Shown: positions 24,618-64,000 of the stretch, piece by piece
Numbering within the stretch: the stretch's first letter is position 1
Layout: every line of letters starts with the position of its first letter
The notes under the pieces: generated by a model
Databases searched by the model: none
Told to the model about the DNA's origin: nothing
What the model saw: only the letters and a program-made list of their open reading frames with translations
DNA from: Squalus acanthias
Taxonomy: Eukaryota
Assembly: GCA_030390025.1 (NCBI GenBank)
Contig: CM059432.1
Location: 91,638,001-91,702,000 of the forward strand
Direction: 5' to 3'
DNA: 64,000 nt
Translations under genes and position numbers: made by a program

Positions 24618-25097
24618 GTAGAGACACAATTCGCAGAGAGCAGCAAGAGGGATTCAGAAATGTTTTACAACTATATTAATCAGGCAGGTCCATATAAAGG
24701 ATAAAATGGATAAAACTATATAATTCACCCAGCATGCTCCTTGGAGATTAACCTCTCTAACCCCTCTCATCCTCTCTTACCTTTTCCACTGCACCCTCTA
24801 ATCCTACAAGTGGATTTTTTTTTTAAATCACCATCCTTCTCCGCATTGCTACCTTGAGAATATTCGTTCTCTTGCAAATTCATGGCCTCATTATGGATGA
24901 ATCCATTGTCATCCTGACACTGACAGATACTTGGCTTACAGGAAGCAACTCCATCCCCCTCACTAAAGCTTCCTCACCTGGCTACAGGTTTCATCTCTTG
25001 CTCCACCCAAACTGCCGTAGTGGTGTTGTGGCTCTGATCATCAAACCCCACCTTGGTCTCTCCCCCTACTTCACTGTCACTTTTTTCTTTGAGTACC

Positions 25098-26794
25098 TGT
25101 AGAATTCGCAATATATCGCGATTTTATTAATAAGGAGAAAACACAAAGTTTCGTTCAAACAGCTTTTATTTCAGTAGAATGCTGGCAGGTTTAAAGTGGA
25201 CACAAGCAGCCTGTAAAATGGCCGCCGCACCTCGTGACAGAACATTCTAGACTTTTCAACAGGCAGACAAGATGGCGTTCCAATAAACATTTGTGCAAGA
25301 TCGATTAAGATTCAGCACAGTGAAGATAATACACGAGACATTATGGGTTTGCAGTATACACATAGATACTGAAATCGGTCTCCCAGGTACAAAGGAAGGC
25401 CATTGTACCGAGTAATCAAGGGCCCATCCAAAAGACATTAATATGTAAAATCCCAACGACTCTACGATGAGAGAGCCGTTAGCAGGTAGTTATACAGGAC
25501 ACTTGGAAGCCCCAAACCCCTCCAGGGAGAACACCGACCGATTTAACAATGGGAGAAATATTAACAGGTACTCAGACATTTACGAGTAGCCCCGAAACCC
25601 ATTAAGAACGGAGATCACCCATACAAGACATTTGAGCGCCAGACCTTAAACAAAAGAATGGACATTATAGTTGGGCGGGAAACGGAAGATTTTGCACTAT
25701 AATTGCAGGCTCCAAACCGTCCAGCTTTCTCTTGCTCCTGTGCTTTTATCCGGTCGATTCGTAACCTCGTGGCTGCTCCTGTGTACTCGTAGTTGGGCTC
25801 GCTCCTGCTTGCCTGTTGCCTCTTCTGAAAAGACTGTTGAACTTTCTGATCCGTTCGGATCTACCTCGTGTCGCGTAACGAAGACCTATGTTGGTAACTG
25901 GCAGCGGAACCGAAGGCCCGAGATGAGATAAGATGAGATGAGATGAGAAGAGAGGAAGACCATATCCATCGCCACGGTCAGTAAATCCCGACCGCGCCTG
26001 TAGGTCGATTAGCCAAGTTTTCCTCGCCAGGAAGACTTCTTCGAACTTATAACGAAACATATTGCATCGAAGATAACTGGACTGTGCCCAAAGTAACTGG
26101 AACGTGAAAACATATCGTATCGACGATATTGACAACTGTGCTCGAAGAGTACCTGTTAAACCAACCAACACAGGTCTTCATCACAGCAGACGGTCCAGCC
26201 TGCTAGCCGGAGCAGCAGAAGCAAGTAAACAAGTGGGACCAGGAGATCTCCTGACCGACACGTGGGTGCTGCGGTGAAAAACATCCGATCAGCTATTCGG
26301 AATTTCTCCGAGTTATCACGAGTGGTGAGCATGAGTCTCGAAATCCTACGAATCTAGTTTAGGATAGATATTGATAGGGGAGGGTTTAAGGATTAAGGAT
26401 ATTTGTAATGTGTGCCCCTATTTACTTTGTGCCGTTCGTTCCTCGTTTCCCTAAGATCGACTATATAACTGTTTTGTAAGATTGTACTGTCATTAATCTG
26501 TGCTTATGACATGTATTTCATAATCTTAAGTAACATGCAATAAAGATTTTCCATTTCGTACCATTCAAACCAAGTCTACATGAGTTTTATCTCCATTACT
26601 GCTCTCGCATCTAAGTCCAGTGTCTAGAACCGTAAGGGAGAGTGATTCGAACCACTCACAGGTGTGTCTAGTGTTCCCAGACTGGCTGGAGACCAGAACA
26701 GGCAGCAAGGCCTAGACCCGCACTGACATACAGGCTGCACAGAGCCGCGTGAATCTCACAGGCCACGAGACACGCAGGGTCAGAATCCCTTACA
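25098..26794 (+). repeat. 5' LTR (1697 bp), TG...CA
   Basis: TGTAG...CTTACA termini; AATAAA at 26539-26544; followed 5 nt later by a PBS; boundaries coincide with the related solo LTR at 52529-54205. Confidence 0.92.
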
Positions 26795-26799
26795 GAAAA

Positions 26800-26817
26800 T
26801 GGCGACCGCGGCAGGAC
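26800..26817 (+). promoter_or_regulatory. Primer-binding site, tRNA-Arg(UCG)-type
   Basis: TGGCGACCGCGGCAGGAC is the 18-nt reverse complement of ...GTCCTGCCGCGGTCG-CCA, the 3' end of a vertebrate tRNA-Arg-TCG (recalled, not searched). Confidence 0.85.
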
Positions 26818-26852
26818 ACTGGCAGCGAGAGGGTAGTGTGTTAGATTTTGGA

Positions 26853-28610
26853 ATGACTGTACGAAATGTTATGCAGGAAAAGATAGCGGATTATGTGTTT
26901 GGAAAGGTTAATCTAACTAAGAAATGGATAAGTGAATTGTTAGCGGATAAGAGCCCACTAGAGGCAGCTGAAAGGTGGACAGATAGTAAAGAACATAGAA
27001 AGACACTTGAGAAAGCAGTCTAGCTTATGTGTTACAAAAGGCAGGTTCAGATTTCAAACCAGACCATTACAGCGCTAGTAGCTCGAATCAGTCATTTAGA
27101 GGGAGAAATGGAGGAGAAGGTTTCTGGAGGGGAGGTGCTCATTAAGAATTTAAATGAGTTACACCAAGAAAGCCAGGAAGTCTCCAGTCACCTTAAAACA
27201 AGGATAGATTATCTCGAGTGCCAGGTCACTGAGGCAAAATTGAATGAGAGCAGGTTAAAGGAAAGATTTAACCGCCAAGCTGCCCAGATAAGAACTCAAG
27301 AAGAAAGCTTGATGGGGGTTAGGGCGGCATATAAGTTGGCCCTTGAGGATAAGTTTCAGGGAGCCGATCATAGCGCCTGCCAAAGGGAGATAGAGCACCT
27401 CAAAAAGGCCGTGAACAACGCGAACGGCATGGTGTGCCTTATCAATCTGTCGGCGCACCAGCCGCTAGTAAATGAGAGATTTAGAAAATCCCCACCAAAT
27501 AAAGCAGAAGAAGTAGTAGCCACTGCGCCCTCCGCGCCACCCAGCTATTCAGAAACCTGGGTTAGGGAGGAAGCAATGGAAGAAACAAAAGAGCCCATTG
27601 AAAAAGAAGTAGGAAAGGGATCGTTATATCCAGTAACGGGTATTAAAAGGGGCCCAAGCAGAAACGGTGGGGAAGAACCGGGGGATCTCCTCGGACAGCT
27701 GGTGTTGCCTCACAGTTCACATCAGCTGAGAGCTATGATAAATCACGTACGGAAGCTGACCGAGGCAGACGACCCTTCCGTACATTTCAGAGAAGTTGAG
27801 CAAGCCGCAGCCATTAACGGCTGCGATGATGGGGAAACAGCAAAAATGCTGCTGTTCTCATTAGACAGCTCGGTCCTTCAGTGTCTCTCAGGCGAGAGCA
27901 AGAGGGGAACCAAGAGTTATGAGGAATTAAAGAATGAGGTCCTAGAAGTGTTGGGGGCGAACGACGAAGGTCCGTTTGCTAGAGTGGGACAGACAGTGCA
28001 GATGGAGGGAGAACCCCCGAAGGTTTTTGCCGACAGGCTGTGGCCAGTATATGAGCGCAGCTGTCTAGGTGCGCCCGAGCGCGAAGATGTGGAAGGTTTA
28101 GCTTTAACTCATTGGCTTAGGTGCATAATAGCCAACAGTTTACCAGCCGTCAGAGAGCAGGCAAAAGCATGGTTTGATCCCAATGACCCCAACATTACGG
28201 AAGAGTCGGTCTTGAATCGACTCACGTTAGGTTATCGCAATATAAGGGGTATGGCAACACGTCCCCTTAAGGGAAGAGTACATGAGGTACGACCCGCAGC
28301 CCCGTATCAAAGAGAGTGGCATCAGGAGGGTAATCGCGCCCCACAGGCAAGTAATGCTTGTTACGGGTGTGGGAAGACAGGGCACTGGCGCAAGCATTGC
28401 AGGAACCCTTGGAAGGATTCCAAGAATAAAAATCCCGCGGTCCGAGCCCAGGCGCCTGTCCCGGCTAAGGAAGCCAAGGCACCCACCCCTCCCGACGACC
28501 TCGAAGCAGTGTTAGGAGCCATGCGCAAGCTGGTCCTGAATGCGCGTGGACAGGTGGCGGTCGCAACCGGCCCCGTAGGTGCCGCAGGACCGTCTAATAG
28601 TACCCAATGA
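26853..28610 (+). pseudogene. gag: Gag-like protein: N-terminal coiled coil, PSAPPSY late domain, capsid-like region, CCHC zinc knuckle; one in-frame TAG at 27021-27023
   Basis: The 74-aa ORF (26799-27023) and the 527-aa ORF (27027-28610) are in the same frame, separated by a single TAG (probably TGG>TAG); CYGCGKTGHWRKHC at 28359-28400; PSAPPSY at 27528-27548. Confidence 0.85.
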
Positions 28611-29771
28611 CTAGAGCCCACGCAGTCTGCCTACCTGTGTCCTTTTAAAAGACACGCACAGGAGGGGGTCTGCGGTGAGGAGGCCAGGTTAAAAGAGCAG
28701 GCCTTGCGGGAGGAGAACGCCCGCTTAATAGGGAAAATAGATAGGCTGGAAGGGCAGCTTAGAGAGCAGGCCCTGCGGGAGGAGAACGCCCGATCAATGG
28801 GAAAGTTAGACGTGCTCAGGCTAGAAGCGCAGCTTAGTGAGATAAAAGCAGCCTACAGGGTAGCCAAGAGCCGGGAGTATGAGGATGCAAACCAGTGCAA
28901 ACTGTACAAGCCAGGTGCGCAAGGGAAAACCACAGGGGTAAATCCCGCCAATGGGAAAGCACAGCCCCAGGTAGGACCACAAGGCACACAGGCAGGCATA
29001 GCAGCTTGCATCAGGGGAAGGGACATCCCGGACGATCATGCAGCGTTTTTCTGGAATTGGGGGTTAGATGAGGAAGAATTCAGGGTACCCGGGTCAGATG
29101 AGGATAGTGCAGATGAGGATAGTGATGACGACGGGTGGTTTCGGAGGAACGGTCCCTTTTACGATATGGAGGGGACGGGGGCTGCAGGTAGAGATCCACA
29201 CAGGGTGGACACACGAGCTGCAGGTCCCGAAGACAGGAGGGAGGAGCTAGAGGAGGCAGGGCCAGCCGCTATGGGAGCACAGAGAGTACCGGTGTGGCTC
29301 CCAGAGATGTGGCCGCCCGCTTTGAACGTCCAGTCCTCAGGGGAGGCAGAGATCACGAGTGAAGGGCCGCCTGCTGGGCCGAGCAGGGCGGAGCCACGAA
29401 CTGCCAGCCCCGAGGTTAGGGAGGCGGAGTCAGCGGAGGCGGAGCCAGCGACTGTGATGGAACCCCAGGTCATCCCGATGGAAGTCTCGGAACCCGGTCC
29501 GTCCGTCACGGAAACCCCGCCCATGGCAACTCCCCGTAGGTCAAGTAGAGAACCCCAGCCCAGGAGGATGTGGTCATGTCCCCAGACTGCCCCAAGGCGA
29601 AAATTTAAGGTTAAGATAACCCAGATACAGACCGGCCACATCGCAGCAGTAACAGGCTGCGGCAGATCAGAGGGAAGGGTCAGCGCAGCAACAGGCTGCG
29701 GCAGATCAGAGGGAAGGGTCAGTGCCCTCCCACCGTCGGGAAGAGCTCGCAGCAGCCTTCTCAGAATTTAA
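28611..29771 (+). CDS. Unknown ORF in the pol position, in frame with gag behind a TGA-CTAG stop (coiled coil, acidic, Pro/Glu-rich, basic tail)
   Basis: Open from 28611 to TAA 29769-29771 in the gag frame; no recognisable protease DTG, RT (Y/F)xDD or integrase HHCC/DDE motif. Confidence 0.6.
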   Translation, partial: LEPTQSAYLCPFKRHAQEGVCGEEARLKEQALREENARLIGKIDRLEGQLREQALREENARSMGKLDVLRLEAQLSEIKAAYRVAKSREYEDANQCKLYKPGAQGKTTGVNPANGKAQPQVGPQGTQAGIAACIRGRDIPDDHAAFFWNWGLDEEEFRVPGSDEDSADEDSDDDGWFRRNGPFYDMEGTGAAGRDPHRVDTRAAGPEDRREELEEAGPAAMGAQRVPVWLPEMWPPALNVQSSGEAEITSEGPPAGPSRAEPRTASPEVREAESAEAEPATVMEPQVIPMEVSEPGPSVTETPPMATPRRSSREPQPRRMWSCPQTAPRRKFKVKITQIQTGHIAAVTGCGRSEGRVSAATGCGRSEGRVSALPPSGRARSSLLRI

Positions 29772-30083
29772 AGGGGCCGCCCTGAGAACGGGCGGCACTG
29801 TATAGTAAGTAGTAATAAGTTTTAAGTTTATAGTTCAAGGTTAAGTTTTAAGTTTATAGTTCAAGGTTAAGTTTATAGTTTTATTAAGGTTAAGTTTGTA
29901 GTGTTTTTAACAGAAAACGATAAAATGATGGGAGCTTTAAAGATAGGTTTAGTTGAAGTTTATTCAGCGAACGTTGAAGTTTACGTGAGGCGAGGTCAGG
30001 GGACCCGCTCACCCTTCACAAAAGCCAGAGACTCTTGCGAGGCTGGCTACCTCATTCTATCTGATCACAGGAACCAAGGAAGG

Positions 30084-31214
30084 ATGGAACGAATTCTAGT
30101 ACTGCTCGCGGCAATCGGATGTGGATTGGCCTATCGAGGCCGCACCAAGGATGTCGTGGTGTTTGGATGTTCCGGGGACACGGCCCCCATCGCGGTGGAT
30201 GGGACCGGAAGACGGGAGGCAGAGGAGACCAGCACCTATTTCCACAAGGGAAGGTGGCCAGGATGGCTGGGAACGAACTCAACGGAGTATTCCAGCACAT
30301 CGGGGTTTGCCTACAAAGAGACTTCTTTACTGTGCCCCAAAGTAAGGATCATCGCACCCAGGATCAGCGTCACCGTCGGCAAACGGATTTGTTTGACTTG
30401 TAGTGGGAAGGTCCCATTGAGCCGATGGTGGTGGCTGCGAAAGCTGAGCAAAACTATGAGGAACTCTTCGGTCGAGTGGGAACGACTGGGTAATAATACC
30501 CATCGGACAATTACGGGGACAGACGGACAAGTGAAAGTCTGTTGGGACAAATGGTGGGAACCGGATGAGGGAATTTATGTATGTATGTGGGGGTCAAGGT
30601 ACGTTTGCCCCAAAGGCATCTCCATATTTTTTATTAATCAATGGCAGGATAACGGACAGGGGATGAGGTGGGATGCGAGCACCAGGGGGTGCGGAGCCCC
30701 ATTCTCCCCGATCCCAGTAAATGCCACTGAGCTCATTACGCGCCCACGCAAAGCCCCGCCCACGATTCCGGTGGTTCTAGCTGAGGAAGAAGGGTGCCCT
30801 AAAACTAGTAAGGGACCCGGGAATGGTTTGGTACTGGTCCCCACAGACCAGATACTATTTCAGGGGGTACATTACGCGGTGGCCTCGGTGATTTTAAATC
30901 TCACTGAGGTGCGGTTACCAGAGTGGTGCCCCAAAAAGACGGAACAGTTGTATCAGGTCCTGTTGACCAAGATGTTCAGACAATTTTACGAATTCGATTT
31001 CGCGGAAATTGATAAAACAAGTTTCTACACCGCACCACAGGAAGTTTTGGATCAAGTAGGGAGGCAAAGAAGGGGTTTGGTGAACGATGCGTTCACTGCT
31101 TTTAACACAGGTCTTCATCACAGCAGACGGTCCAGCCTGCTAGCCGAAGCAGCAGAAGCAAGTAAACAAGTGGGACCAGGAGATCTCCTGACCGACACGT
31201 GGGTGCTGCGGTGA
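30084..31214 (+). pseudogene. env: Env-like glycoprotein: signal peptide, Ig-like domain, F2-like region, furin site RQRR, start of fusion peptide; truncated by a deletion at ~31104
   Basis: MERILVLLAAIGCGLA signal peptide; VTVGKRICLTC...W...DEGIYVC Ig signature; five N-glycosylation sequons; RQRR/GLVNDAFTAFNTG at 31062-31112; candidate acceptor ...ctatctgatcacAG at 30070. Confidence 0.75.
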
Positions 31215-31730
31215 AAAACATCCGATCAGCTATTCGGAATTTCTCCGAGTTATCACGAGTGGTGAGCATGAGTCTCGAAATCCTACGAATCTAGTTTAGG
31301 ATAGATATTGATAGGGGAGGGTTTAAGGATTAAGGATATTTGTAATGTGTGCCCCTATTTATTTTGTGCCGTTCGTTCCTCGTTTCCCTAAGATCGACTA
31401 TATAACTGTTTGTAAGATTGTACTGTCATTAATCTGTGCTTATGACATGTATTTCATAATCTTAAGTAACATGCAATAAAGATTTTCCATTTCGTACCAT
31501 TCAAACCAAGTCTACATGAGTTTTATCTCCATTACTGCTCTCGCATCTAAGTCCAGTGTCTAGAACCGTAAGGGAGAGTGATTCGAACCACTCACAGGTG
31601 TGTCTAGTGTTCCCAGACTGGCTGGAGACCAGAACAGGCAGCAAGGCCTAGACCCGCACTGACATACAGGCTGCACAGAGCCGCGTGAATCTCACAGGCC
31701 ACGAGACACGCAGGGTCAGAATCCCTTACA
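31104..31730 (+). repeat. Partial 3' LTR (R-U5 part; equals 26167-26794) followed by a second PBS copy (31736-31753)
   Basis: Near-identical to the 3' 628 bp of the 5' LTR; joined to env at AACACAGG. Confidence 0.92.
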
Positions 31731-31759
31731 GAAAATGGCGACCGCGGCAGGACATTTTC

Positions 31760-33455
31760 TGTAAGGGATTCTGACCCTGCGTGTCTCGTGGCCTGTGAGA
31801 TTCACGCGGCTCTGTGCAGCCTGTATGTCAGTGCGGGTCTAGGCCTTGCTGCCTGTTCTGGTCTCCAGCCAGTCTGGGAACACTAGACACACCTGTGAGT
31901 GGTTCGAATCACTCTCCCTTACGGTTCTAGACACTGGACTTAGATGCGAGAGCAGTAATGGAGATAAAACTCATGTAGACTTGGTTTGAATGGTACGAAA
32001 TGGAAAATCTTTATTGCATGTTACTTAAGATTATGAAATACATGTCATAAGCACAGATTAATGACAGTACAATCTTACAAACAGTTATATAGTCGATCTT
32101 AGGGAAACGAGGAACGAACGGCACAAAATAAATAGGGGCACACATTACAAATATCCTTAATCCTTAAACCCTCCCCTATCAATATCTATCCTAAACTAGA
32201 TTCGTAGGATTTCGAGACTCATGCTCACCACTCGTGATAACTCGGAGAAATTCCGAATAGCTGATCGGATGTTTTTCACCGCAGCACCCACGTGTCGGTC
32301 AGGAGATCTCCTGGTCCCACTTGTTTACTTGCTTCTGCTGCTCCGGCTAGCAGGCTGGACCGTCTGCTGTGATGAAGACCTGTGTTGGTTGGTTTAACAG
32401 GTACTCTTCGAGCACAGTTGTCAATATCGTCGATACGATATGTTTTCACGTTCCAGTTACTTTGGGCACAGTCCAGTTATCATCGATGCAATATGTTTCG
32501 TTATAAGTTCGAAGAAGTCTTCCTGGCGAGGAAAACTTGGCTAATCGACCTACAGGCGCGGTCGGGATTTACTGACCGTGGCGATGGATATGGTCTTCCT
32601 CTCTTCTCATCTCATCTCATCTTATCTCATCTCGGGCCTTCGGTTCCGCTGCCAGTTACCAACATAGGTCTTCGTTACGCGACACGAGGTAGATCCGAAC
32701 GGATCAGAAAGTTCAACAGTCTTTTCAGAAGAGGCAACAGGCAAGCAGGAGCGAGCCCAACTACGAGTACACAGGAGCAGCCACGAGGTTACGAATCGAC
32801 CGGATAAAAGCACAGGAGCAAGAGAAAGCTGGACGGTTTGGAGCCTGCAATTATAGTGCAAAATCTTCCGTTTCCCGCCCAACTATAATGTCCATTCTTT
32901 TGTTTAAGGTCTGGCGCTCAAATGTCTTGTATGGGTGATCTCCGTTCTTAATGGGTTTCGGGGCTACTCGTAAATGTCTGAGTACCTGTTAATATTTCTC
33001 CCATTGTTAAATCGGTCGGTGTTCTCCCTGGAGGGGTTTGGGGCTTCCAAGTGTCCTGTATAACTACCTGCTAACGGCTCTCTCATCGTAGAGTCGTTGG
33101 GATTTTACATATTAATGTCTTTTGGATGGGCCCTTGATTACTCGGTACAATGGCCTTCCTTTGTACCTGGGAGACCGATTTCAGTATCTATGTGTATACT
33201 GCAAACCCATAATGTCTTGTGTATTATCTTCACTGTGCTGAATCTTAATCGATCTTGCACAAATGTTTATTGGAACGCCATCTTGTCTGCCTGTTGAAAA
33301 GTCTAGAATGTTCTGTCACGAGGTGCGGCGGCCATTTTACAGGCTGCTTGTGTCCACTTTAAACCTGCCAGCATTCTACTGAAATAAAAGCTGTTTGAAC
33401 GAAACTTTGTGTTTTCTCCTTATTAATAAAATCGCGATATATTGCGAATTCTACA
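31760..33455 (-). repeat. Full-length inverted LTR copy (1696 bp)
   Basis: Reverse complement of 25098-26794 with only a few substitutions and one indel (e.g. antisense ORF SSYLR vs SSYHR; THNVS vs THNVL). Confidence 0.93.
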
Positions 33456-35308
33456 TACCTCAACCTCTCCCATCCTCTCACTTAAACTACTTGTGGTGCA
33501 TGGTCCTCCAAAGCTGCACACTAACTTCCTCACCGAGATCTCCTCATGAACCCTCTACACCAAGCAACTTCTCAATGTCAGTGATACAACCTATACCCAA
33601 ACTCCCCCAGCCCTCTCACATCTAACTTCTCTGCCTTACTACCTTTACTTAATCTCACCCTTCACATAAACTCTCAGCCACACCCATGGTCATTCCCTTG
33701 ACCTCACCATCACTTACAATCTCTCCACTTCCTCATCTTGCTTATCACCTCCATTGCCTTCCCCCAATCCTGGAAAGAACTCTTCCCCAGTTCCCGCAAT
33801 AATTCACTGTCAAATCCCAACTTCCTGCACCCACAACACATCTGTAAAAAACGTTTAGTCATAGCAAATGGGACTCATTGATGCATGACATATACAGAAG
33901 TTAATGAAGAAATTGGAAGGAATAAATATCGACAAGAGTCCTGGGCCAGATGGGATGCATACATGCTAGAATCCTCAAAGAATTAAAGATGGAAATTAGA
34001 GATGCTTTGCTTAATGTTTTTAGAGCTCCATAAATACGAGATAAGCACTTGAGGATTGATGTGTTGAGGGTTGGAGGATACAAATGTAATTCTAATGAAT
34101 AAGCTACAAACATGACAATTACAGACCAATTAGCCTAGCACAGAAGGAGAAATGCTTTGAGGCATTCCAAATTATGCCATTAATGAAGATTTAAAGAATA
34201 CAAATATCATAGGAAGCAGCCAGCATGAAGTTAGATGTAATAAGACATGCCTTTAAAACTTACTGGGATTCATTGAGGGGGTAATAAACTATTGGACATG
34301 GATAATCCAGTCAATGTACTTTTCAAAACAGGAACGAGCTTGGTTATGATGCTTCCTATGTTTGAATAGCCAGCTGACATTCACTATCATGAATCACACA
34401 TGAAGAATGGCCAATTGAGTAAGGTAATGGATGACTATTAGCACCAACCAGTTGGAGTCAATACTTCAGATTTCTACAGGAAACACCTGAATTTTGCCCA
34501 GTATGAACAATTTTAAGTATGAATGTACTTATTTCTTCTTTTAAACAAAAAACATTTTTATGGTTCTTCCATCTGCACACAGAGTGAAATAACTATTGCT
34601 GGGAATTTCCTCAGGGGTTGCACCAATTGTCCATTAAAAATTCAGTGGAAGATCAGCAGAAACTCTGGCTAAACAATATAAATGGCGCCCAATCGGGAGA
34701 ACCCCCCAAGGAAATTCCTGATGATGTGCTGTAACTTTTGAGTACAGTATTTTTTTGTTTATTTTAAATTGTACATACCTACCAACCAAATGTTAACTGT
34801 GCATCTGATCTCTGGTGATCTAGCGAGGGTTGCATTGGTAAATGTTTGGCAAATCATTGTGGTAAATGAAGATAAGGAGGTTTGCATTTCTCACTGGCCT
34901 AGATAGACTTCAGCCAGATGTTGATCGTCATCATGTTAGAGCTATATGTAGCTTTAATCATCTGCCATTTTCTAGCTGGTTTCTTTTTAAAAATAATATC
35001 AGATTGTGATGAAGATAAAAAAAGAGTGCTTTGATTTGTTGTGAACTACTGTAAAATCTGATATAAGTGTAGATTCACACAGCCCCTGAACCTTTTGTTG
35101 TCCTGCAATAAAGCTGCTGTAGTGAAGTCAAAACTCAAGAGGCAGAACATCAGTACTGCACCGACTTTGTAAAATATATTGACAGTTGGATGGTTGGTAT
35201 TATTGACCTAACAGTTCCAATAATAAATGTTGCAAGTCAAGTAGTGAACCTATAAATAATTAACTTACATTTAACAGTAAGTAGAGAAACACATTGTTTT
35301 CCACTTAC

Positions 35309-52097: not shown

Positions 52098-55000
52098 GGG
52101 GGAGAAATTCATTATAGCCCAGGAATGGGCGTTAACTTTTGAAAAGGTTGAGAATTAGCACCAGACGCTAATGCTTCAGACTGCATGCAAAATTTAGTCT
52201 CATTGTACAAAGAAAGGATTGGAGCGCTAAATTAAGCGCTAATGGCCTAGCTCAGAGGTGTTAAACTCGAAGCGCTGACCAATATCAGGTGCAGTCTAAA
52301 CATAAGTCATCATTGCCACAGGCTCTTCCCAGTTCTTAAAAGGGGAGGATCATTGATGCTGCAGAACCTCATTCTCATCATTGCTGGCTGTGCAGCCATC
52401 TCAACCAGCCGCAGCAGGTCAAGGAGAAGGAGTCGGATGACTCAAGCAGCCGTAATGATGGCAAATCCACGCCCCTGGGAGAGAGCGTGCAGATTCTGCG
52501 ACCATGCATTGGAGGCATTGGTGATCGTTGTAGAAATCACAATATTATCGCGATTTTATAAATAAGGAGGAGACACATAGTTTCGTACAAACAGCTTTAT
52601 TTCAGCAGAATACTGTCAGGTTTTCAAAGTGGACACAAGCAGCCTGTAAAATAGCCGCCACGCCTCGTGGCAGAATGTTCTAGACTTTTCAATAAGCAGA
52701 CAAGATGGCGTTCCAATAAACATTTGTGCGAGATCGTACAAGACTCAGCACATTTGAGATAATTCACAAGACATAATGGGTTTGCATTTTACACATAAAT
52801 ACTGGAATCGGTCTCCCAGGTGCGAATAAGGGCTATTGTACCGAGCGATCAAGAACCCATCCAAAGACATTAATATGCAAAATCCCCACGACTCTACGAT
52901 GAGAGAGCCGTTTGCGGGTAGTTACAGAAACATTTGGAAGCCCCAAAACCCCTCCAGGGAGAATACTGACCGGTTACACAATGGGAGAAGTATTAACGGG
53001 TACTCAAGCAGTTACAAGTATCACCGAAACCCATTAAACGGAGATCACCCTATACAAGAAGTTTGAGCGCCAAAACCCTGACAAAAGAAAAGACATTAAG
53101 ATTGGGCGGGAAAAGAGGAATTGCAGCACTATAACTGTAAGGTACAACCGTCCATCTGTCTCTTGCCGCTTGCTCTTGCTCTTGCCGCTTGATCTTGACT
53201 CTTAGATCCTGACTCTTGCTGCTCGACTTGCTGGAAGACTATTGAACTTTCTGATCCGCCAGGATCAACCTCGTGGCTTGCCGCGAAGATCTGTGTAGAA
53301 CTGGGCTGTGAAGCCTTGAAAGGGCACACCATCCCGAGAAGTCGGTAAACGGTGTTGGAACCGAAGGCCCGAGATGAGATGAGATGAGATGAGAAGAGAA
53401 GAGAAGACGACCATACGTATCGCCATGGTCAGTAAGCCCCGACCGCGCCTGTAGGTCGAATAAACACTTTCCTTGCCCAGGAAGGCTATTCTTTGAGTTT
53501 TACAAACTGGCGTGAGGGCACAGGAAGACCATTCTTCGAGTTTTATCGCATCGGTGCGAGGGCACAGGAAGACTATTTTTCGAGTCGTGTCGGAACTCCG
53601 AGGACAACACAGATCTTCATGACAGCAGACGGTCCAGCCTGCTAGCCGGAGCAGAAACGAGTAAACAAGTGGGGTACAGAGACCCCTGATCAACACATGG
53701 GCGGGCAGGTGCTGCGGTAAAAACATCCGAGCAGAGTTTCGGAATTCTCCGAGGTTATCACGAGTGGTGAGCATGAGTCTCGATCCTACAAAATCTAGTT
53801 TAGGTCAGGTATTGATAGGGGAGGGTTTAAGTTTTAAGGATAATTGTAATGTGTGCCCCCTTTTACGATGTGTCGTGCGCTCCTCGTTTCCCTAAAATTA
53901 GTTACATAACTGCGTGTAAGATTGTACTGTCATTAATCTGTGCTTATGACATGTATTTCGTAATCTTGAATAATATGCAATAAAGATTTTCCATTTCGCT
54001 CTATTCAACCGGGTCTACCTGAGTTTTCTCTGCATTATTGCTCTCGCACCCAAGTCCAGTGTCAGAACCGTAAGGGCGAGTGGGTCGAACCACTCACAGG
54101 TGTCTAGTGTTACCAGGCTGGCTGGAGACCAGAACAGGCAACAAGGCCTAACCTCGCACTAGCACCCAGGCTAAGCACAGAGCCACAGGCGTGTCACCCC
54201 TTACATCGTGGTGGAAAGATGGTGGGCGGTGCTCAACCTGGCAAGTAGCAGGAGGCCCTCGCCGCAAGCCTTCCGCACCATGTGAAGGGAGGTAGCCCAG
54301 CATGTCTCTGGCAGCACCGTGGTCCCCAGGACCCCCACACAGTGCAGAAAGAAATTTAACAACCTCACATGGGTGGTCAGGGTGAGTCAATGCTTCAACA
54401 AATGCTGCATACCACCATTTGAAACAGAGTCTGAACACACTGCAGAAAGCACCACACTCCCAGCACTCACCCACCAACAATCTCTGCCTACCAACACTCA
54501 CATCTTAAACCTTGCACACAATGACAGCTATTCAACTATGGCAGGCACATCACCCAAACACATTCCTCCACACTCACTAATACACTTTCCTTTCTCTTGC
54601 AGGCCAAGGTGGCTCACAACAGGAGGGAGCAGGAGCTCACAGGCGGGGTACAAGCCGACATCCAACCACTGTCTGAGCTAGAGAATCGAGTGCTGCAGAT
54701 TATTTGGGCGCCATGGCCACCGGCGACATTGACCCCCTTGGGGACAACAACCGTATGTTCATCCCTACTCCTTCCTCTCACATCCCACTTCCCCCCTCAT
54801 CCCACAAGCCTTTCGCACTTTCCAGCTAATCATGCTGTATGCATGCATTTCTCCTTTCCTGCCCCCCCCTCCACTCACCTTAACCCAAATCTTATGCCTT
54901 TATGCTTTCAGATAATGAGCAAGCACCTGAGCAGCCTGTCCCTGAGGGCACCGTTGAGAGCGAGGCAGGAGAAGAGAAGGAGGAAGAAGACACCGCGTCA

Positions 55001-57614
55001 CTGCATGTCTCACCTCAGCTCAGATACTGTCACTACGCGTTCTTTAGAGGCTAGTATAGTAGCGGGATCTGCACAGGGTGAGGCACCGGGGATGAGCGGG
55101 CTGCAGCAAGGCCAGCGGGAAAGGGTAGCTCGGGGGCCAGCTCCCCGGAGGGCGAGTACACGCGCAAGTTCTGCTGCACAGGACTCAGATGAGGACCTCG
55201 ATGGGGAGGCCTTTAGAAGAAGGGTGATGGGCATGCACACGGAGATGATAGGTGCAATGGCAAGGGTGCCCGAGAGCCTCTTGGCAATGGTAAGGAGCGT
55301 GGAGGAGTCCGCCTCCAACATTGTACAGAGCTCTGCGCACACCACGGAACCCATTATTTCCAGTCTGCAAAGGATGGTAGACTCCCAGAGAGACCGTGGC
55401 AACCCAGACCTGATGCCGTGTGTGATGGGCAATCTGGCAGCTTCCATTGCAGCACAGGCGGAAGTGACGCAATGCCTTAGTGCTGTAATGCAGTCTATGC
55501 TTGGTGGCATTCAATCTCAGACTGCTCTCATGCAGTCTCAGCTTGATGCCACACAAGCTCTGACTGCTGCCATCGTGGCTGGGTCTACCACCGTCGACCG
55601 GGGCTTTCACGGTGTCACAGCAGACCAGCAATCTCAGTTGCAACAGATTGCTAAGGATGCTGAGGTGCTGCCCCGGGGGAGTGGCAGTGGGTCAGTGGAG
55701 CAGGAAGCTGCTGTCCTCTCAGGATGACAGCATTTCTGCTCCCACCACTGGCAGTCCGCCAATGTCCTTGTCGCTGCCAGTCATCCAGCCAGCCCAGACT
55801 GCTGCTGCCTATGCTGAGGTGGTGCCGTCTACAGCCGGCCCTTACAGGCCCAGAACTGGTCGAGGGCATCCTGCAAGGCCATCTGAAGTCTCCTGCATGG
55901 ACACTCAGCAGCCTTCCACCAGCCCTGCTGCAGCCATTGGGCCAACACGTCATAGGAGCACTAGAGTAGGCAAAGGCACAGTAACGAGAGGCACTAAGGG
56001 ATTGCACAAGGGTGAATAGGTAATATTGTTGTAAATGTGTTCACTGATTAGTGATAAATTTATTAATTCCATTTGGATTATTTTGTGGTGTGTCTCATTT
56101 CAGCTTTGCGCTGTGATATGGCTTGCGACAGGGATGGAATGATGGGAATGTGGTGAGCAATGGGGATCTGGGGTTTAATTTATTGGAACCGCAGACTGAG
56201 GAGGCGATCACGGACTGCCGTTTCGGAAGGCCAATTGAGAGGCTGCCGCCTCCTCGTCTTCCTCCGGAGGTGGTCGCGCAATCCCTGGTGGCAAGGGCTG
56301 GGCCCTCATGATGGCCAAGTTGTGGAGCATGCAGCTGACCATCACGAGATGGGACACCCGCTCAGCTGAGTACTGGAGGGCTCCTAGAGTGGTCAATGCA
56401 GCAGAACCATTGCTTGAGCACCCCGATGGTCTGCTCGATGATGTTCCTGGTGGTGGCTTGGCTCTCATTATATGAGTGCTGGGCAGGAGTGTTGAGGTTG
56501 CAGAGGGGAGTCATGAGCCAGGTGGAGAGCGGATAACCCTTGTCTCCAACCAGCCGACTGCAAGCTTGACATGGTGGCTGGAAGAATGCTAGCACACCAG
56601 TCTGGCGCAGGATGGCTGCTGCCAGGATAGCGGGCATTGACATTGGAGGATTCGCTGTCTGTGGTCACACACCAATTGCACATTAAGTGGTAGCCTTTGC
56701 AGTTACGGAAGATCTCAGGATTGTTATGCATTGCCCGCAAAGCCACATGGGTGCAGTCAATGGTGCCCTGCACCATGGGGAAGCCCGCTATCCTGGCAAA
56801 GCCACATGCACACTCATCCTGCTCCTCTCTGGTGATGGGGAAGGAAATGTAGTCCCTTCTCCTACCGTAGAGAGCCTCTGTGACCTCCCAGATGCAGTAA
56901 TGGACGGCGAACTGCGAGATGTTAGCTAGATTTCCTGTTGCAGACTTGAAGGATCCACTGGCAAAGAAATTGAGGGCGGCGGTGACTTTGACTGCCACTG
57001 AGAAAGCCGTGGTTGCCCTGATCTGGGGCTCGAGGTCTGGTTGGAGGATATGGCAGAGTTCTAAGACCACCTCCTTGCTGAAGCAGAGCCTTCTAATACA
57101 CTGCTCCTCACTTAATTGAAGGTAGAAGTGCTTTCGGAATACCCGTGGAGGGTAAGGCTTCCTGTTGAGAGCCCTCATGGCTCTTCTCCTCCCTCTGCCT
57201 CTGCTCCCTCCGCAGTAGATCCTGGAGGGCAAGGTTGACTGCCAGCACAGCCCCCATTAATATAAGGAAGTGCAGCACTTTGATATGTTGAGAATAAGTG
57301 TAACTAATTGTTAGTAGCCACAACACTCCTGATACTAAACAACCTTTAAATGACTGAATTAAACTGTTGCACAATGTCAAACTGACAATGAAGCAGTGAA
57401 ACAGCACTAACAGGACACCTGCGACTCATTACTCATGATCCCTTTAAGTAGCGCCCCTGGAGCTGGCATCCACCTGCTTGATGCCTCCTCTCCCTGTCGC
57501 TGTCGTTGCAAGGCGCTAAGGCTGGGGGGCGACAATGAATTTTGCTGATTGGGCGCCCAGTGAGCGCCCTTAGTGCCCCCCGCCAGGCGCTAACCAACTG
57601 AATTTTTCCCCCCC
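52098..57614. mobile_element. Harbinger transposon: spliced Myb/SANT-like gene on plus (~52456-56019, split by the solo LTR), transposase pseudogene on minus (~57260-56180)
   Basis: TIRs GGGGGAGAAATTCA / TGAATTTTTCCCCCC; RTPTQCRKKFNNL; QGTIDCTHVALR, GDKGYPL and RNIIEQTIGVLKQ motifs. Confidence 0.85.
52529..54205 (+). mobile_element. Solo LTR of a sister subfamily of the 25098 element, inserted in a Harbinger Myb-like gene
   Basis: TGTAGAAAT...CCTTACA; 4-bp TSD TCGT; colinear similarity with 25098-26794 over its whole length; no PBS follows. Confidence 0.9.
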
Positions 57615-58118: not shown

Positions 58119-58443
58119 TGATGCGGAGGTGCCGACGTTGGACTGGGGTGGACAAAAATGAGAAGTCGCACAACACCAGGTTATAGTCCAACAGATTTAT
58201 TTAAAATTACAAGCTTTCGGAGCTATTGATCGTCCCTTCTTCAGGTAAAGTTACTAAGAGTGAATCTACAAAAATTCACAGAATATAAACAGAGAAAATG
58301 CAGAGATACAGTGTTTATATTCTGTGAATTTTTGTAGATTCACTCTTAGTAACTTTACCTGAAGAAGGGGCGATCAATAGCTCCGAAAGCTTGTAATTTT
58401 AAATAAATCTGTTGGACTATAACCTGGTGTTGTGCGACTTCTC
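58119..58443. mobile_element. Palindromic Penelope-derived non-autonomous element with hammerhead motifs in both arms
   Basis: 134-bp arms (58158-58291 / 58312-58445) with a 20-nt loop; 12-bp TSD ATGAAAGCTTAA (58107-58118 / 58444-58455) in a decayed CR1. Confidence 0.8.
58355..58396 (+). ncRNA. Minimal hammerhead ribozyme motif
   Basis: TTAC-CTGAAGA-AGGGGCGATCAATAGCTCC-GAAAGCTT-GTAA: core boxes, stem I TTAC/GTAA, palindromic AAGCTT; mirror copy on minus at ~58207-58248. Confidence 0.72.
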
Positions 58444-59884
58444 ATGAAAGCTTAAGGCAGTGGACATCCCAGATAAAACTCACAGGTGTGTAAGGAATTA
58501 TTTAAAAGAAAGCAAGCAGTGGATACCAATTAGGGGCAGATTGATGTTGGGGAGGAGAGATGGACTGCCCCAGGGATGGATGCTGGGGCCCCTACTAATT
58601 CTGATTTACATAAATAATTTGCATACAGTAATGCAAAATAAATTGGTCAAATTCCACAGCAGATACTAGACTAAGGGGGTAAGTGGGTAGTAGTGTCTGA
58701 CAAAAAGACCTACACAATAATTTACATGGGTAGAACTATTGCAGATGAAGTAAAATACAGATAAATGCATGGTCTTTCTCATAAGAAAAAAATGGGGTGC
58801 ATTTGTAATAAATAAAGTCAAACTAGCTGAGGAAGAGAGGATGAAAGAAAGATGAGAGAGTAGACTCAACACTGACCATGTTCAGTCATTTCAGAGCAGC
58901 AATTAACAAAGCAAATAGAATGCTGAGCACCCAATAGCGGAGTTAGCCCTTATAAATCTGAAACAAGTGTGCTGAAGCTCTCTAGTGCTCTGGTCAGCCT
59001 GCATCTGGATTCAGCTCTCGTCTGAGGCACTATGGAAACATCCAAGCCCTGGAAGTGATAGAAAGAAGGGCCACAAGGGTCAGAGGACTAAGGAAAGTTT
59101 ATAATAACTTGGACTCTTCAATCTTGAAATGAGGTGACTGAGAGGGGGTCTTATACAGGTATCTTATATACTATGTGGAATAGAAGAGGTTAATCCGAAG
59201 CATTATTTCAACTTAAAGCCCAATTGCAAGACAAGTGATAATATGTACAAACAGGTAAAAAGGTGGACAGCTTATAAAGAGGAGAATGGGGCAGATAGAA
59301 AAAAAAATGGTTTGAGAGTGGATGGAGGACAGGAGATGATTAAATGACAGAAGAAGTGATAATGGTGTTACAAAAGGAAGCAATAGTGAGAGAAATTAGA
59401 GAAATAAAAGTTGTATCTACGACTCAGAGGAGGTGTAAATGGTTACAACAGAATAGCGGAGGGAGAGGGAAGCATGGAAAATTTGGCAAAGTGGAGAAGG
59501 CTCCAATGGCCCAGGAGTATGGTGGAAGAATAAGGCTGGTAACACCAGGGTTGCAGACCCCCAAAGATAGAGGATGGTCATGTTTTCTCATGGATACAGC
59601 TATGTTTTTAACCTTCCTACTCATGAAACAGCCACCAGTGTAAATGGGCTGGGATGAGTGTGCTTCATGAATAGGGGATTGCACCTCCAAAGAGTTAGAT
59701 CGAGATTCTGGCTGGGATTTTCTACTTTGGCAGAATTCCGATGCAACTTTGGTAGGGTGACCTGCCGCTGACCGAGTTTTCCAAGGTTTAGATTCATAGA
59801 CAATTTTTGCATGCTCCCCCTGGGACTTGCACCTTGGTTGAGGAGCCCATCTCAGAGTAGGAAGGGAATTGTATCTGACTTTTG

Positions 59885-62800
59885 AAATAAAAACAGAAAA
59901 TGCTGTTAATACTCAGCAGGTCAGGCAGCATCTGTGGAGAGAGAAACAGAGTTAATGGGCCGGATTTTGATACTGGGGCGGGTTGGGGTCGTGTTATCCG
60001 CTTTTCGTGTTGCCCACCCGAATCTGGATCGATGTGGGAGAATGATGCGATTTTAACTTAATTGGCCAATTGAGTTCCAACGTGTGGGAACCCATGGCCA
60101 ATGAGTTATTCCAGTCTGAAAGTCGCCTCCGATGATGTCATCATTGCTGCTGCATGCAAGGTCTGCAACAAGCCTTGCTTCTTCTGCAGACTGCCAACCA
60201 TTTGGACTTGTATCTCCGAGGCAACTACAGGAGGAATGGCCAGCCAAAGACACAGGTCTGCTCCCAGGTTCGATGACATTGCCCTGCAAGCTTTAGTGGA
60301 GGGAGCAAGAGGCAACAAAGAGGTGCTCTTCCCTTCCTCAGGGAGGAAGAAGCCTCTCCAGCAGACCAAGGCTGTGTGGGTCCAGGTCACCCAGGACCTT
60401 CAGTGCAGGAAGAGGTTTCATGACCTTCTACGCACTGCAAAAGTGAGTATGACTTTCCCTTCACCCTCAATCTGATCCCCATTGCCTCTCCTCACCAGCA
60501 CTCAGCTTTAGCAACCTCTTCCTCCATATCCCACTTGACACTGACATCCATGCACCCTTACCCATTCCCTCTCCCTCTATGGTCACATTCACCTTACTAT
60601 TCGACTATGCAGCCCTCACACTCCCTATCACTGTCATGCTATGAAAACAACTTACAACACACAGGGAGGGCCCTTGGTCTTGCCACCTCACTCCATCTTT
60701 GTCTCCTTCTAAGCATCTATGCTATGGATTCTCTACACTCACTCCTTCAAACTCACTCAAACTCCACTTGTCTCCCTCATTGCAGGAAAAGAGAGCTCAC
60801 AATAAAAGGGCAAGAGCCAGGATGAGGGCCACCTTCATTAGCCCAGCTCACCCCCTGGGAGGATGCGGTTCTGGAGATCATGGGAGTGGAGGAAGCTGCA
60901 ACATCTGAGGGCGCCGCGTCAGCAGAATTCAGCGCACCCAGCACCAGCGCAGAGACTCACACCTCGGTGGGACCCTCGGGACATAGAGTAGTGTTGTCAC
61001 CTGGTGTAGCACAGCTCACAAGTGAGCATCAGCAGATGGTGGAGACAGGGACAGCAGTGGAGAGTCCTAGTCGGAGGGCGCAGGACTCTGCCAGCTCGGC
61101 TCAGCGGCATGTCGACCCTCTGCCTCTGGGTCCATCCACAAGATCAGCGGTGCTGGAACTCCAGGAACAGATGCAGGAGTCTCGGACAGGTTTTGTCTCC
61201 AGCGTCGCTGCGAGTGTGGAGCGAATGGAGGAGTCCATTGCGAACATGAGCAGAGCCTTTGTGGAATCATTGGCGCATGAATGCATCACCATGGAAAGGA
61301 TGGCAACCTCCGTGCAAATGATGGCAACCTCCGTCAAAAGGATGGCTACAGTAGTTGAAGAGGATGGCTACAGTCATGGAGGAGGTAAGTCGCCAGAGTG
61401 CAGAAAACATGGTGAGTGTTCAGAATAGAATGACATCTCTGGAGGAGCGATGGTCATCTATTGAACACAGAAACCAGACCTTCATGGAAGTCCTTCTGAG
61501 TAGGCCTTCCAGTGCAGATACGGGTCCCCATGGCCCCCCTGATGTGCAGCAAGGTGCTCTCAATCCACTTGCAAGCGCTGAGGTGGACCTGACCCATGAG
61601 AGGGATGATGGTGGCAGAGAACAAGGAGGTGGGGGCTCCTCTCCAAGCGCTCACACTTCCATGCCACTGACAAGCCCTCGGTCAGAGCCCCACCAGAGTC
61701 TGCACCCAACTGAGATTGGCGTCTCAACCCCTGCACAGCAGCAGGAGCAGCAGACTGTTGGCGAGCCCTCACAGGTTCGCAACCCCAGGAGGACGCCCAC
61801 CAAAGGTGTCGAGACAGGAGCAGCAACAAACTGAGCAGGGGGCCTCCACCTCTGCTGAAGCCACAGGGGAAGCACCATGTAGGAGCACGTGTAAGAGAAA
61901 GATACTGCACAAATAGTCACAAGGGTAGTCACTTGGGTGAAATTTGATGTTTAATGTAAAAAAGTCATCAGATGTTAAGTGTAAAAAAAAACTCTGATGG
62001 CTACTGCTGCAGTTGTGGCGTCTGTCATTTCACTAATGAGACTTCCACAATGAGGCCTTAGGATAACTTGCACTTGTCAGTATGGTGGTCAAATTGTTAG
62101 GGATCCGTTGGTTCTTGGCCATTGTCGAAGCTCTGGTAAGAAGCTGCGAGGCAAAAGTGCTCGATTGTCTAGGCTGAGCAAATCTGGCCAAGATGAGTGC
62201 ATTCCGTGAAGCTATGGTCTCGCGTAATGCTGCCGCTGGTTGATGGGACTCTGCAAGTTGTTCGTTCTCTCTCTCCTCCTGCTCCTCCACCTCCTCCTCA
62301 TCTGAGGAGGATGTGAAGAGCCACTTGGTCCTCCGGCATCTGCAAGTCACGACGCTGTGCCATGTTGTGAAATGCACAGCAAACCACGACGATTCTGGAG
62401 ACCCTGGCTGCTGAGTATTGCAGGGCTCCACCTGATCTATCCAGGCATCTGAAGCGCATCTTCAGCATACCGATGGTTTGCTCGATTATGGCTCTGGTGG
62501 AAATGTGGCTGGAGTTGTAGCTCTCCTCAGCTGCGTTGGATGGGCTCCTCAACGGCGTCATTAGCCACGTCTTCAGGGGATAGCCCGTCTCCAAGTAGCC
62601 ATCCGTTAAGTTGGTCTGGCGGACTGAATAGCGGAGGCACACTAGACTGGCGCAGTATGAAGGAGTCATGGCAACTGCCAGGGTACTTGGCACAAACATG
62701 CAGAACTTCCTTCTTGTGGTCACACACCAGCTGAACGTTGAGGGTGTGGAAGCCCTTGCGGTTGACAAAAATACCTGGATTGCGATGGGGTGCCTTAAGA

Positions 62801-64000
62801 GCCACATGTGTGCAGTCAACGACGCCCTGCACCCTTGGAAAGCCTGCCAGATTAGCTTATCCAACCGCACGCGCCGTGACACTTGCTCGATCCTTGGTGA
62901 AATGGATGTGATTGTGCGGGATGGCAAGGAGGGCATCGGTTACCTGCGTGATGCAGGTGTGTGTGGCCGCCTGGGAGATGCCGCTGATGATCCCTGGAAT
63001 GAGCCTGAGGCAAAAAAGTTGAGTGCGGTGGTGACTTTGACGGCCACTGGTAAGGGGTGTCCACCTGGTCCTCTGGGCTCCAGGTCTTGTTGCAGCATTG
63101 CACAGATGTCACCCACTACCTCTCGCGAAAGTCGGAGCCGCCTTTGGCACTGCTGCTCAGACAGGTTGAGATAGCTGACCCTGTGTCTGTAGACCCTGTT
63201 TGGGGGGTATCTCCTGCGCCGACGGCCTTCCATGCGCTGGTCTGTGCAGCTTCAGGCGGGTGAGCAGCAGCTTGGCGCTCCTGTTGTTGGTGCTGCTGTT
63301 GGTGCTGCTGTTGTTCATGGTTCTGCTGCTGCCACGGCTGGTGTCGTCCTCATCTGATGCCCAGGAGGGAAGGAAATAAATGGCTCCCATGCCTCTGGTA
63401 TATGCCTCAGTTGAGGAAGCGCTCAATGAGGGCGGCGAGAGGGGTTTCCCAGGAGGTCACACTGGAGATGGGTGTCAGGCTCAAAACTTCCAGAGCTGTG
63501 GTTATGCCTTCTAAAAGTTCCCCCAGACCTGTGACAACAAAGTTCTGCCACCTGCAAATGATGGCTGATCAAATCTCCTATTTAATGGTTGAGCTGCAGC
63601 TGAGAGTCAGCAATCCACTTGTGCTCCCGCCAGGTTTCACCGGCGTGTTTCAGATCAGGAGTGCTTCATGTGGGAAAAGGGTTAAACTAGCAAATAACTA
63701 TCAAAATGGCATTACAGAGCCAATTTAGGGCTTGTTAAGGGCATTAATGGCCTCTCCCGCCTCTTGGAGGCGGGACCAGCAGACACGATTTCATCAAAAT
63801 TGCGTGGAGGCGGGATGGAGGCAGGTTTGGGCCCACCCGCCAGTTTCTTCAATTTTAACCCCCCACACGCCTCCAATCCCGCCTCAATGGCCCTATCAAA
63901 ATCCAGCCCAATGTTTCCATTAACTCTTTCTCTCTCCACAGATGCTGCCTGACTGCTGAGTATTTCCAGCATTTTCTGTTTATTTCAGATTTCCAGCATC
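59885..64000. repeat. Penelope pseudo-LTR-derived inverted repeat whose loop carries the Harbinger insertion
   Basis: 59889-59956 (CAGCATCTGTGGAGAGAGAAACAGAGTTAA) is the reverse complement of ~63918-63985 and matches 6470-6530. Confidence 0.7.
59957..63909. mobile_element. Full-length Harbinger transposon: Myb/SANT-like gene on plus (from ~60236), transposase on minus (~63380-62180, frameshifted)
   Basis: TIRs GGGCCGGATTTT / AAAATCCAGCCC; TSD AAT; RSAPRFDDIALQALVE...[32 protein letters not shown] and RAIIEQTIGMLKMRFRCLD motifs. Confidence 0.9.

Follow-up and report, generated by a model that had tools for sequence, protein, structure and literature searches.

In a 64,000-nucleotide stretch of the Squalus acanthias genome (assembly GCA_030390025.1, contig CM059432.1, positions 91,638,001 to 91,702,000; hereafter the window, whose own numbering we use throughout), positions 25098 to 33455 are occupied by an endogenous retrovirus (ERV) that carries gag, an intervening open reading frame (ORF X) and env. 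No protease (PR), reverse transcriptase (RT) or integrase (IN) lies between gag and env, as a preliminary description made from the sequence alone had recognised when it proposed a pol-less lokiretrovirus with a novel accessory frame. We consider it probable that the element belongs to a non-autonomous family that arose by deletion and swap from an ERV related to snakehead retrovirus (SnRV; clade Huo) and is mobilised by pol-bearing helper proviruses. The family has lost PR, RT, RNase H and the integrase core, retaining the first 11 and the last ~290 codons of pol, and it is outnumbered by pol-bearing relatives with the same long terminal repeat (LTR) end, primer-binding site (PBS) and readthrough signal.

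The pol-less layout recurs across the genome. The internal region of the family gave at least 35 full-length matches at 97–100% identity (35 scored of 5,643 candidates), and all 30 fetched loci, chosen by likeness to the window copy and hence biased towards young copies, share the order gag, TGA CTA G, X and env, with no room for pol. Among them gag is open in 26 (from the equivalent of position 26853), X in 29 and env in 19; 18 loci have gag and env open together, and 18 have all three frames open. Each of the four other copies whose ends were checked has its own 4-bp target-site duplication (TSD) and direct LTRs, with 1–4 mismatches between the 5′ and 3′ LTRs in about 1,490 bases. With the rate that PMC4422223 assumes for sharks, the copies would be roughly 1.5–6 million years old; a mammalian rate would make them ten times younger. 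Searching the assembly for diagnostic junctions yielded 1,102 matches to the pol/X junction and 2,142 to the pol-type junction (0 in the control searches of each), together with 317 to the junction of a sister pol-less type; unplaced contigs and tandem units contribute to these numbers. The many pol-less copies and their separate integrations mark the family as non-autonomous and bear out the proposal of a young gag-X-env lineage. The sister type came to light when a search of the assembly with a skate Gag led to a related subfamily, from which a pol-bearing locus (L039) and a pol-less locus (L040, contig C9) were fetched. L040 has the same 5′ junction and Gag-like insert, but its insert is longer, reaching a capsid-start motif, and its 3′ junction differs from that of the window family; its gag and env are 94–96% identical to those of L039. 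Tandem copies sharing one LTR at a spacing of about 7.4–7.8 kb were also observed (contigs C1, C7, C16, C264 and C3448), a pattern consistent with unequal recombination between LTRs or with duplication in the assembly.

ORF X comprises 386 codons in frame after the TGA CTA G context, and comparison with pol-bearing loci identifies it as a remnant of pol, still in frame, into which a piece of Gag has been swapped, rather than a new gene, since similarity to the helpers runs to 28642 and resumes at 28889, both times in the pol frame. Its first part (28611–28643, + strand) corresponds to the opening 11 codons of pol, which precede the protease motif, as compared with L039, L041 and L043. The second (28644–28888, +; 82 codons) is a Gag-like coiled coil that contains an internal duplication. 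The third (28889–29771, +) corresponds to the acidic, proline-rich C-terminal tail of pol, downstream of the SH3-like domain of integrase, and follows the helper pol frame to its stop. In L042 and L044 this tail lies in one frame with integrase (65% amino acid identity between X and L044) and extends about 280 codons past the SH3-like domain, again acidic and proline-rich and with an internal duplication; at 28889, reads of runs X9 and X10 part from X and continue into integrase. The direct match of the coil to Gag is weak (E 1.4e-5 to Gag P0002), as is that of X to the window's own Gag (E 0.046). The second part is 83% identical in nucleotides to the sister X of L040, which in turn clearly matches five Gags (E 1e-13 to 3e-10). 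An smc-like gene of the lokiretroviral kind is an improbable identity for X, whose coil matches Gag coils. The novel accessory frame of the preliminary description is therefore mostly pol-derived, which comes close to the out-of-frame pol remnant that the same description had named as an objection; the frame itself is preserved, which rules out the out-of-frame version.

Pol-bearing helpers are plentiful. L039 has the order gag-TGA-pol-env and encodes PR, RT, tether, RNase H and IN; the helper RT gave at least 91 scored matches at 98–100% identity, many in long open frames, and a related Pol fragment is annotated in a shark at 90% identity. A further pol-bearing copy (L043/L044) has the PBS and stop context of the window element, and L043 matches 29 of the first 30 bases of its LTR. 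Relatives of this kind, sharing LTR ends and PBS, are abundant and provide candidates for the helper that the preliminary description postulated. Identity between the window element and L043/L044 is 83–90% in gag and 75–94% in the tail of X, but reaches 97–99% at 29939–30379, around the start of env. Given the lower identity of gag and tail, this segment appears to have been exchanged recently with a helper, for which co-packaging is the best explanation. From the shared ends and the mosaic env we infer mobilisation in the following form: RNA of the family would be packaged in mixed particles, with Gag and Env supplied by the family itself and Gag-Pol by helper proviruses; helper RT and IN would then copy and insert it, and co-packaging would keep exchanging env and LTR ends.

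The stop at the end of gag (TGA CTA G, 28608–28614, +) is kept in 30 of 30 loci and recurs in pol-bearing L041 and L043, which identifies it, on sequence comparison, as inherited from the gag-pol junction of the helper. UGA followed by CUAG is a validated readthrough context in human genes (10.64898/2026.07.14.738498; except for PMC4422223, the papers cited here were available in part, and what we draw from them extends to those parts). Because the context derives from gag-pol, some Gag-X is likely made by predicted readthrough: leaky reading of UGA-CUAG would give some Gag-X where the helper makes Gag-Pol. Among the sequencing runs listed as matching, none is identified as RNA. X itself is probably neither an enzyme nor a true accessory protein but a tolerated filler that stays open for reasons acting in cis, such as RNA signals in 3′ pol or protection from nonsense-mediated decay. 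In murine leukemia virus, an open frame after gag reportedly protects the RNA from decay, a precedent that may apply here.

Selection was gauged within the family from ratios of nonsynonymous to synonymous polymorphism (pN/pS) in open frames only, with about 21 distinct rows for gag, 21 for X and 17 for env; L005, L007, L022 and L026 were left out for gag and X, and the frame counts given above come from a separate tally. The ratios are 0.28 for gag, 0.09 for env and 0.54 for X, the last dividing into 0.42 for the tail (0.33 on shared variants) and 2.06, on few sites, for stub plus coil. Between two helpers the pol tail evolves at a dN/dS (the corresponding substitution ratio) of 0.62 against 0.08 for integrase, and between the X tail and the helper tail the ratio is 1.24, with no purifying selection in that comparison. 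As a candidate gene, X is thus weakly constrained. It is nevertheless conceivable, though we regard it as unlikely, that X is a functional readthrough product, with Gag-X co-assembling with Gag and favouring pol-less RNA or recruiting helper Gag-Pol, in which case the family would be a true satellite lineage. Such a role would suit the invariant stop context, the near-universal openness of X, the ratio in the tail, and a gag-X junction that is bridged by contigs from runs of two other organisms (X5 record 20, X10 record 11); it would also suit the fact that two subfamilies, with gags that are a third different from each other, share the same coil insert, which is in frame in both although their 3′ junctions differ. 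The coil itself speaks against it, with 0 synonymous and 9 nonsynonymous shared variants within the family and a ratio of 0.80 between subfamilies (40 codons), as does the value of 1.24 for the tail against the helper; at 1–2% divergence few breaks are expected in any case (gag is broken in 4 of 30 loci over 585 codons).

The helper RT bears on the origin of the family. It carries the motifs LPQGFHNSP and QYVDD, as does the SnRV row of a published alignment, and not the CPFGYxNSPA(E/D)F of lokiretroviral rows (PMC7947760, supplement). Over 165 columns (four blocks compared by eye, so that the counts are approximate) it matches SnRV at ~85 positions, walleye dermal sarcoma virus (WDSV) at 70, feline foamy virus at 67, murine leukemia virus (MuLV) at 65 and Loki-Lca at 64, SnRV being the closest of the five reference rows. 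In a 22-row RT tree, which contains neither SnRV nor published lokiretroviral sequences, the helper clusters with RTs of amphibian, coelacanth and gamma-like origin and is separated (97/94) from P0108, a protein chosen by its motif as the lokiretroviral proxy. A clade of helper plus P0108 was rejected by an approximately unbiased (AU) test on 20 rows (p 0.019; P0071 and a duplicate left out), and the helper RT is 33% identical to the Loki-signature RT as against 50–56% to its amphibian and coelacanth relatives. No RT relative was found in viral contigs, and two homologue searches returned no SnRV protein. A Ty3/gypsy LTR retrotransposon was ruled out by the dual RNase H and by separation from gypsy-like rows at 100/98, and a class I gamma- or epsilon-type ERV by the lack of a CX6CC motif, by an RT identity of 33–38% to Gag_p30-bearing relatives and by the scores of WDSV and MuLV below SnRV; neither of these affiliations, which the preliminary description had flagged as a threat to its reading, is borne out.

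The lokiretroviral assignment of that description does not hold, and a pol-less lokiretrovirus is now very improbable. The family and its helpers do show traits by which lokiretroviruses are described (PMC7947760), namely an F-like Env with an RXXR (furin) site and transmembrane (TM) segment, a coiled-coil Gag and, in L039, a tether and second RNase H; in addition, automatic database names of the Pol relatives read 'NYNRIN-like', and the deep branches of the 20-row tree are soft. RT motifs, identities and tree nevertheless set the helper outside lokiretroviruses. A tether and second RNase H are shared with all retroviruses. F-like Envs occur also in foamy viruses (PMC11468914) and, by structure search, in walleye viruses, and the available part of PMC7947760 lists no lokiretrovirus in the chondrichthyan orders screened. 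With SnRV and clade Huo, on the other hand, the lineage shares the N-terminal coil and single zinc finger of Gag and, in its helpers, a pol in frame behind a stop that would be suppressed, as in SnRV (PMC6001957, PMC4977317, PMC2717909), in addition to the RT similarity and a cartilaginous-fish host; SnRV-like ERVs are known from elephant shark as CmiERV lineage I (PMC4422223). It differs from them in its thousands of young copies, where they have few old ones, and in its large pol-less branch, 1.7-kb LTRs and UGA stop.

Several points weigh against the derivation proposed here. The SnRV label comes from motifs and a by-eye count rather than from a tree containing SnRV, so that the helper looks SnRV-like, and in the AU test a wider group including the lokiretroviral proxy was rejected only marginally (p 0.047). 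The nearest helper may be unseen, since the gag comparison covered no more than 3 of about 2,100 copies with pol. Recombination with helpers, rather than selection on the family, could be the source of the low env ratio. Some selection on X is possible in view of its open frame in 29 of 30 loci, the ratio of 0.42 in its tail and the two pol-less types that are both in frame at different 3′ junctions.

Env (30084–31103, +) is represented in the window by its 5′ 340 codons, cut just after a furin site (RQRR, amino acid 327; 31062–31073, +), whereas sister copies have 783 codons; the natural Env of one such copy has RQRR at 327, ten sequons, a TM segment near 734 and no CX6CC motif. The preliminary description spoke of a signal-peptide glycoprotein with a furin site; the site is present, and the signal peptide was seen by eye only, as a 19-residue hydropathy scan of the sister-copy Env flagged the C-terminal TM alone. 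We found 50 relatives of Env and modelled it from a 25-row alignment (mean pLDDT 59.5, the Ig region only about 40–65); a single-sequence fold (pLDDT 33.9) was discarded. The model matches the F protein of human parainfluenza virus 3 (Foldseek E 1.7e-11), and its residues 245–653 align to paramyxo- and pneumovirus F with Z up to 12.2 and a root-mean-square deviation of 5–7 Å over about 300 residues; the F-like part starts from about 30816 (+). Upstream, at about 30345–30584 (+), the N-terminal profile matches Ig domains (best E 3.8e-8), with a weak Pfam Ig_3 match (E 0.18) and atlas leads at 0.85 besides; because of the low pLDDT of this region, the Ig call is based on these searches and not on the model. 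Searches of Env against PDB sequences and against Pfam alone returned nothing significant and no PF00523 match. The predicted structure and profiles thus identify Env as a class I fusogen of the F type that bears an Ig-like head, in line with the Ig-fused F-type envelope proposed earlier. Since helper Env is 89% identical to family Env over its full length, this architecture appears to be a trait of the whole lineage, helpers included, and not specific to the pol-less design; in the available parts of the sources we found no description of an Ig-plus-F Env for the SnRV-like clade. The head is probably the receptor-binding part, by analogy with the gamma-type RBD-C, which has an Ig-like N-terminal domain (10.1101/2024.03.17.585361); gamma-type Envs share that domain but have the CX6CC motif that family Env lacks. 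Foamy Env, also F-like, carries its own receptor-binding domain inserted inside the F scaffold (PMC11468914), whereas here the head precedes the F-type body. Since the present retrovirus has an F-type, Ig-headed fusogen and yet belongs with neither lokiretroviruses nor foamy viruses, F-like Env is no basis for calling lokiretroviruses. In a structure search of BFVD, Env of walleye epidermal hyperplasia virus 1 ranked 3 (E 3.5e-13) and that of WDSV 19 (E 3e-9), which suggests that epsilonretrovirus Env is F-like too.

Gag (26799–28610, +) runs from an N-terminal coiled coil through PSAP/PPSY late motifs (~27528–27548, +) and a capsid-like middle, similar in atlas features (0.93) to Retrotrans_gag clusters, to a single CCHC knuckle (~28356–28403, +; profile match to HIV nucleocapsid, E 3e-5). 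The coil, late domain and knuckle named in the preliminary description are all present; this copy has an in-frame stop at 27021–27023. A relative is annotated in a skate at 51% identity. Candidate starts lie at 26799, 26853 and 26871. The first in-frame ATG overlaps the PBS (26799–26817), so that the primer site could encode the first residues of Gag; the skate relative (P0001) is annotated from the same start, L039 and L041 carry another variant of the PBS that alters these residues, and an invariant Met follows 24 codons after the PBS-overlapping ATG.

The window copy differs from its family in structure. Self-comparison of the window places its bounds at 25098 and 33455, between TSDs of TACC (25094–25097 and 33456–33459, +), and its 5′ LTR at 25098–26794 (+; 1,697 bp, TG...CA). 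After a 5-nt spacer comes a PBS (26800–26817, +) that is complementary at all 18 positions to a host tRNA-Arg(TCG) gene with CCA added; SnRV is likewise primed by tRNA-Arg. LTR length, TSD and primer are as first described. The LTRs are indeed nearly identical (3 substitutions and 1 indel), yet they form no ordinary direct pair: 25098–26801 is inverted relative to 33455–31753. The preliminary description overlooked this inversion, together with a third, partial LTR copy and the truncation of env at 31103. That partial copy (31104–31754, +) consists of R-U5, equivalent to 26167–26818, ends with the 18-nt PBS (31736–31753) and is joined to env through 9 shared bases (31104–31112). The complete inverted LTR (31760–33455) and its spacer follow on the − strand (31753–33455), across a fold-back junction with 2 shared bases (31753–31754). 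Terminal inverted repeats as a family trait were ruled out, the four other copies checked having direct LTRs. The U3 region would span 25098–26166, with R from about 26167, where the partial copy begins and LTR subfamilies converge; AATAAA lies at 26539–26544 (+), and no TATA box is evident.

Since both odd junctions (31104 and 31753) occur a single time in the 3.7-Gb assembly while the 4-bp TSD is intact, the locus is probably a one-off rearranged copy that arose when reverse transcription went astray and the product was integrated through two U3 ends. The inverted arm terminates exactly at the U3 end, directly before TACC, the pattern that integrase would leave. In the putative order of template steps, minus-strand strong-stop DNA would jump to the 9-base match within env; the plus strand would run through U5 into the 18 bases of the uncleaved primer and fold back on the 2-base match, copying an LTR in reverse; and integrase would insert the two resulting U3 ends normally, leaving a dead-end by-product of the family. 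An assembly artefact from a fold-back chimeric read, or a rearrangement of an ordinary provirus after insertion, is a quite improbable source of the inverted end. Long palindromes are a known long-read artefact, each junction is seen only once, no independent read spanning either was found, and no sequencing run bridges 31104 among the matches listed. A read chimera would not, however, give arms with private differences, and four such differences are each confined to one arm (equivalents of 25335, 26071, 26210 and 26472), while a variant at 26425 is common to the partial copy and the inverted arm and absent from the left LTR and from 28 of 29 other 5′ LTRs. Also against these origins are the exact U3 terminus with the same TACC and breakpoints that coincide with replication landmarks (the 18-nt PBS end and the inferred start of R). 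The flanks are consecutive, colinear parts of one old repeat, found in order on 3 of 3 paralogous repeats within about 10–25 bases of the expected distance. If reads confirm the structure, the locus would preserve in the germline a rarely recorded event, the integration via two U3 ends of strong-stop DNA that had mis-jumped.

Replacement of a central segment with flanks kept and complementation in trans is known from bovine ERVK[2-1-LTR] D/C, ETn/MusD, RecKoRV/KoRV and IAP I-delta-1 (PMC10924933). The shark family resembles these ERVs in having its centre swapped for a piece of another retroelement, and differs in that this piece keeps a readthrough frame open; bovine D-type has no intact ORF, whereas here gag and env stay open together in 18 of 30 loci with ratios well below 1. 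Zebrafish BHIKHARI (Bik-1/Bik-2; 10.1101/2024.03.25.586437) is likewise pol-less and Gag-coding, with an N-terminal coil and recent mobility, but it is Loki-related and Bik-2 is without env; grouse TERV (cited in PMC2717909), also pol-less and Gag-coding, has only a truncated env. Searches of open-licence paper listings, which take in neither Repbase nor Dfam, brought up no SnRV-like family with a gag-X-env layout, no F/Ig Env in SnRV-like viruses and no provirus with an inverted LTR, nor any family in which gag and env both show signs of selection while a readthrough remnant stays open. Pol-less ERVs usually lose genes or keep gag alone, and here both genes are mostly open in the sampled copies, with about 1,400 junction-counted pol-less copies of two types beside about 2,100 pol-type junctions, so that parasite-of-parasite dynamics and spread by reinfection become testable from genome data alone. 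A more speculative picture, to which we give a low though not negligible probability, is that of a long-lived SnRV-like satellite lineage of cartilaginous fish with its own selected Gag and Ig-headed Env and with Pol in trans, in which the second, Gag-like coil of a readthrough Gag-X biases assembly or packaging towards the satellite, the insert has moved between subfamilies by recombination, and the F-type fusogen is an ancestral retroviral envelope shared with foamy, Loki and walleye viruses.

Further features were noted around the element and its primer. The insertion target is an old repeat (24827–25097 and 33456–33900), with 40 relatives at 72–81% identity and a frame that by eye resembles the endonuclease of a long interspersed nuclear element. 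Genes for tRNA-Arg(TCG) and tRNA-Ser(GCT) form a large tandem array with a 1,623-bp period on assembly contig C26 (39.0–41.9 Mb), and the primer tRNA motif has 431 matches genome-wide. A solo LTR of a related subfamily (52529–54205; TG...CA, TSD TCGT) is 77–84% identical to the LTR of the element; near the putative start of R, a run of 75 bases agrees fully with pol-bearing L043. This solo LTR interrupts the first of two transposon remnants (54525–57256 and 60826–62939) with Myb-like and transposase-like frames, which we take to be Harbinger-like. Finally, two inverted arms of 134 bp at 58158–58445, 99% complementary and 20 bases apart, look like a short recent fold-back or an element resembling a miniature inverted-repeat transposable element.

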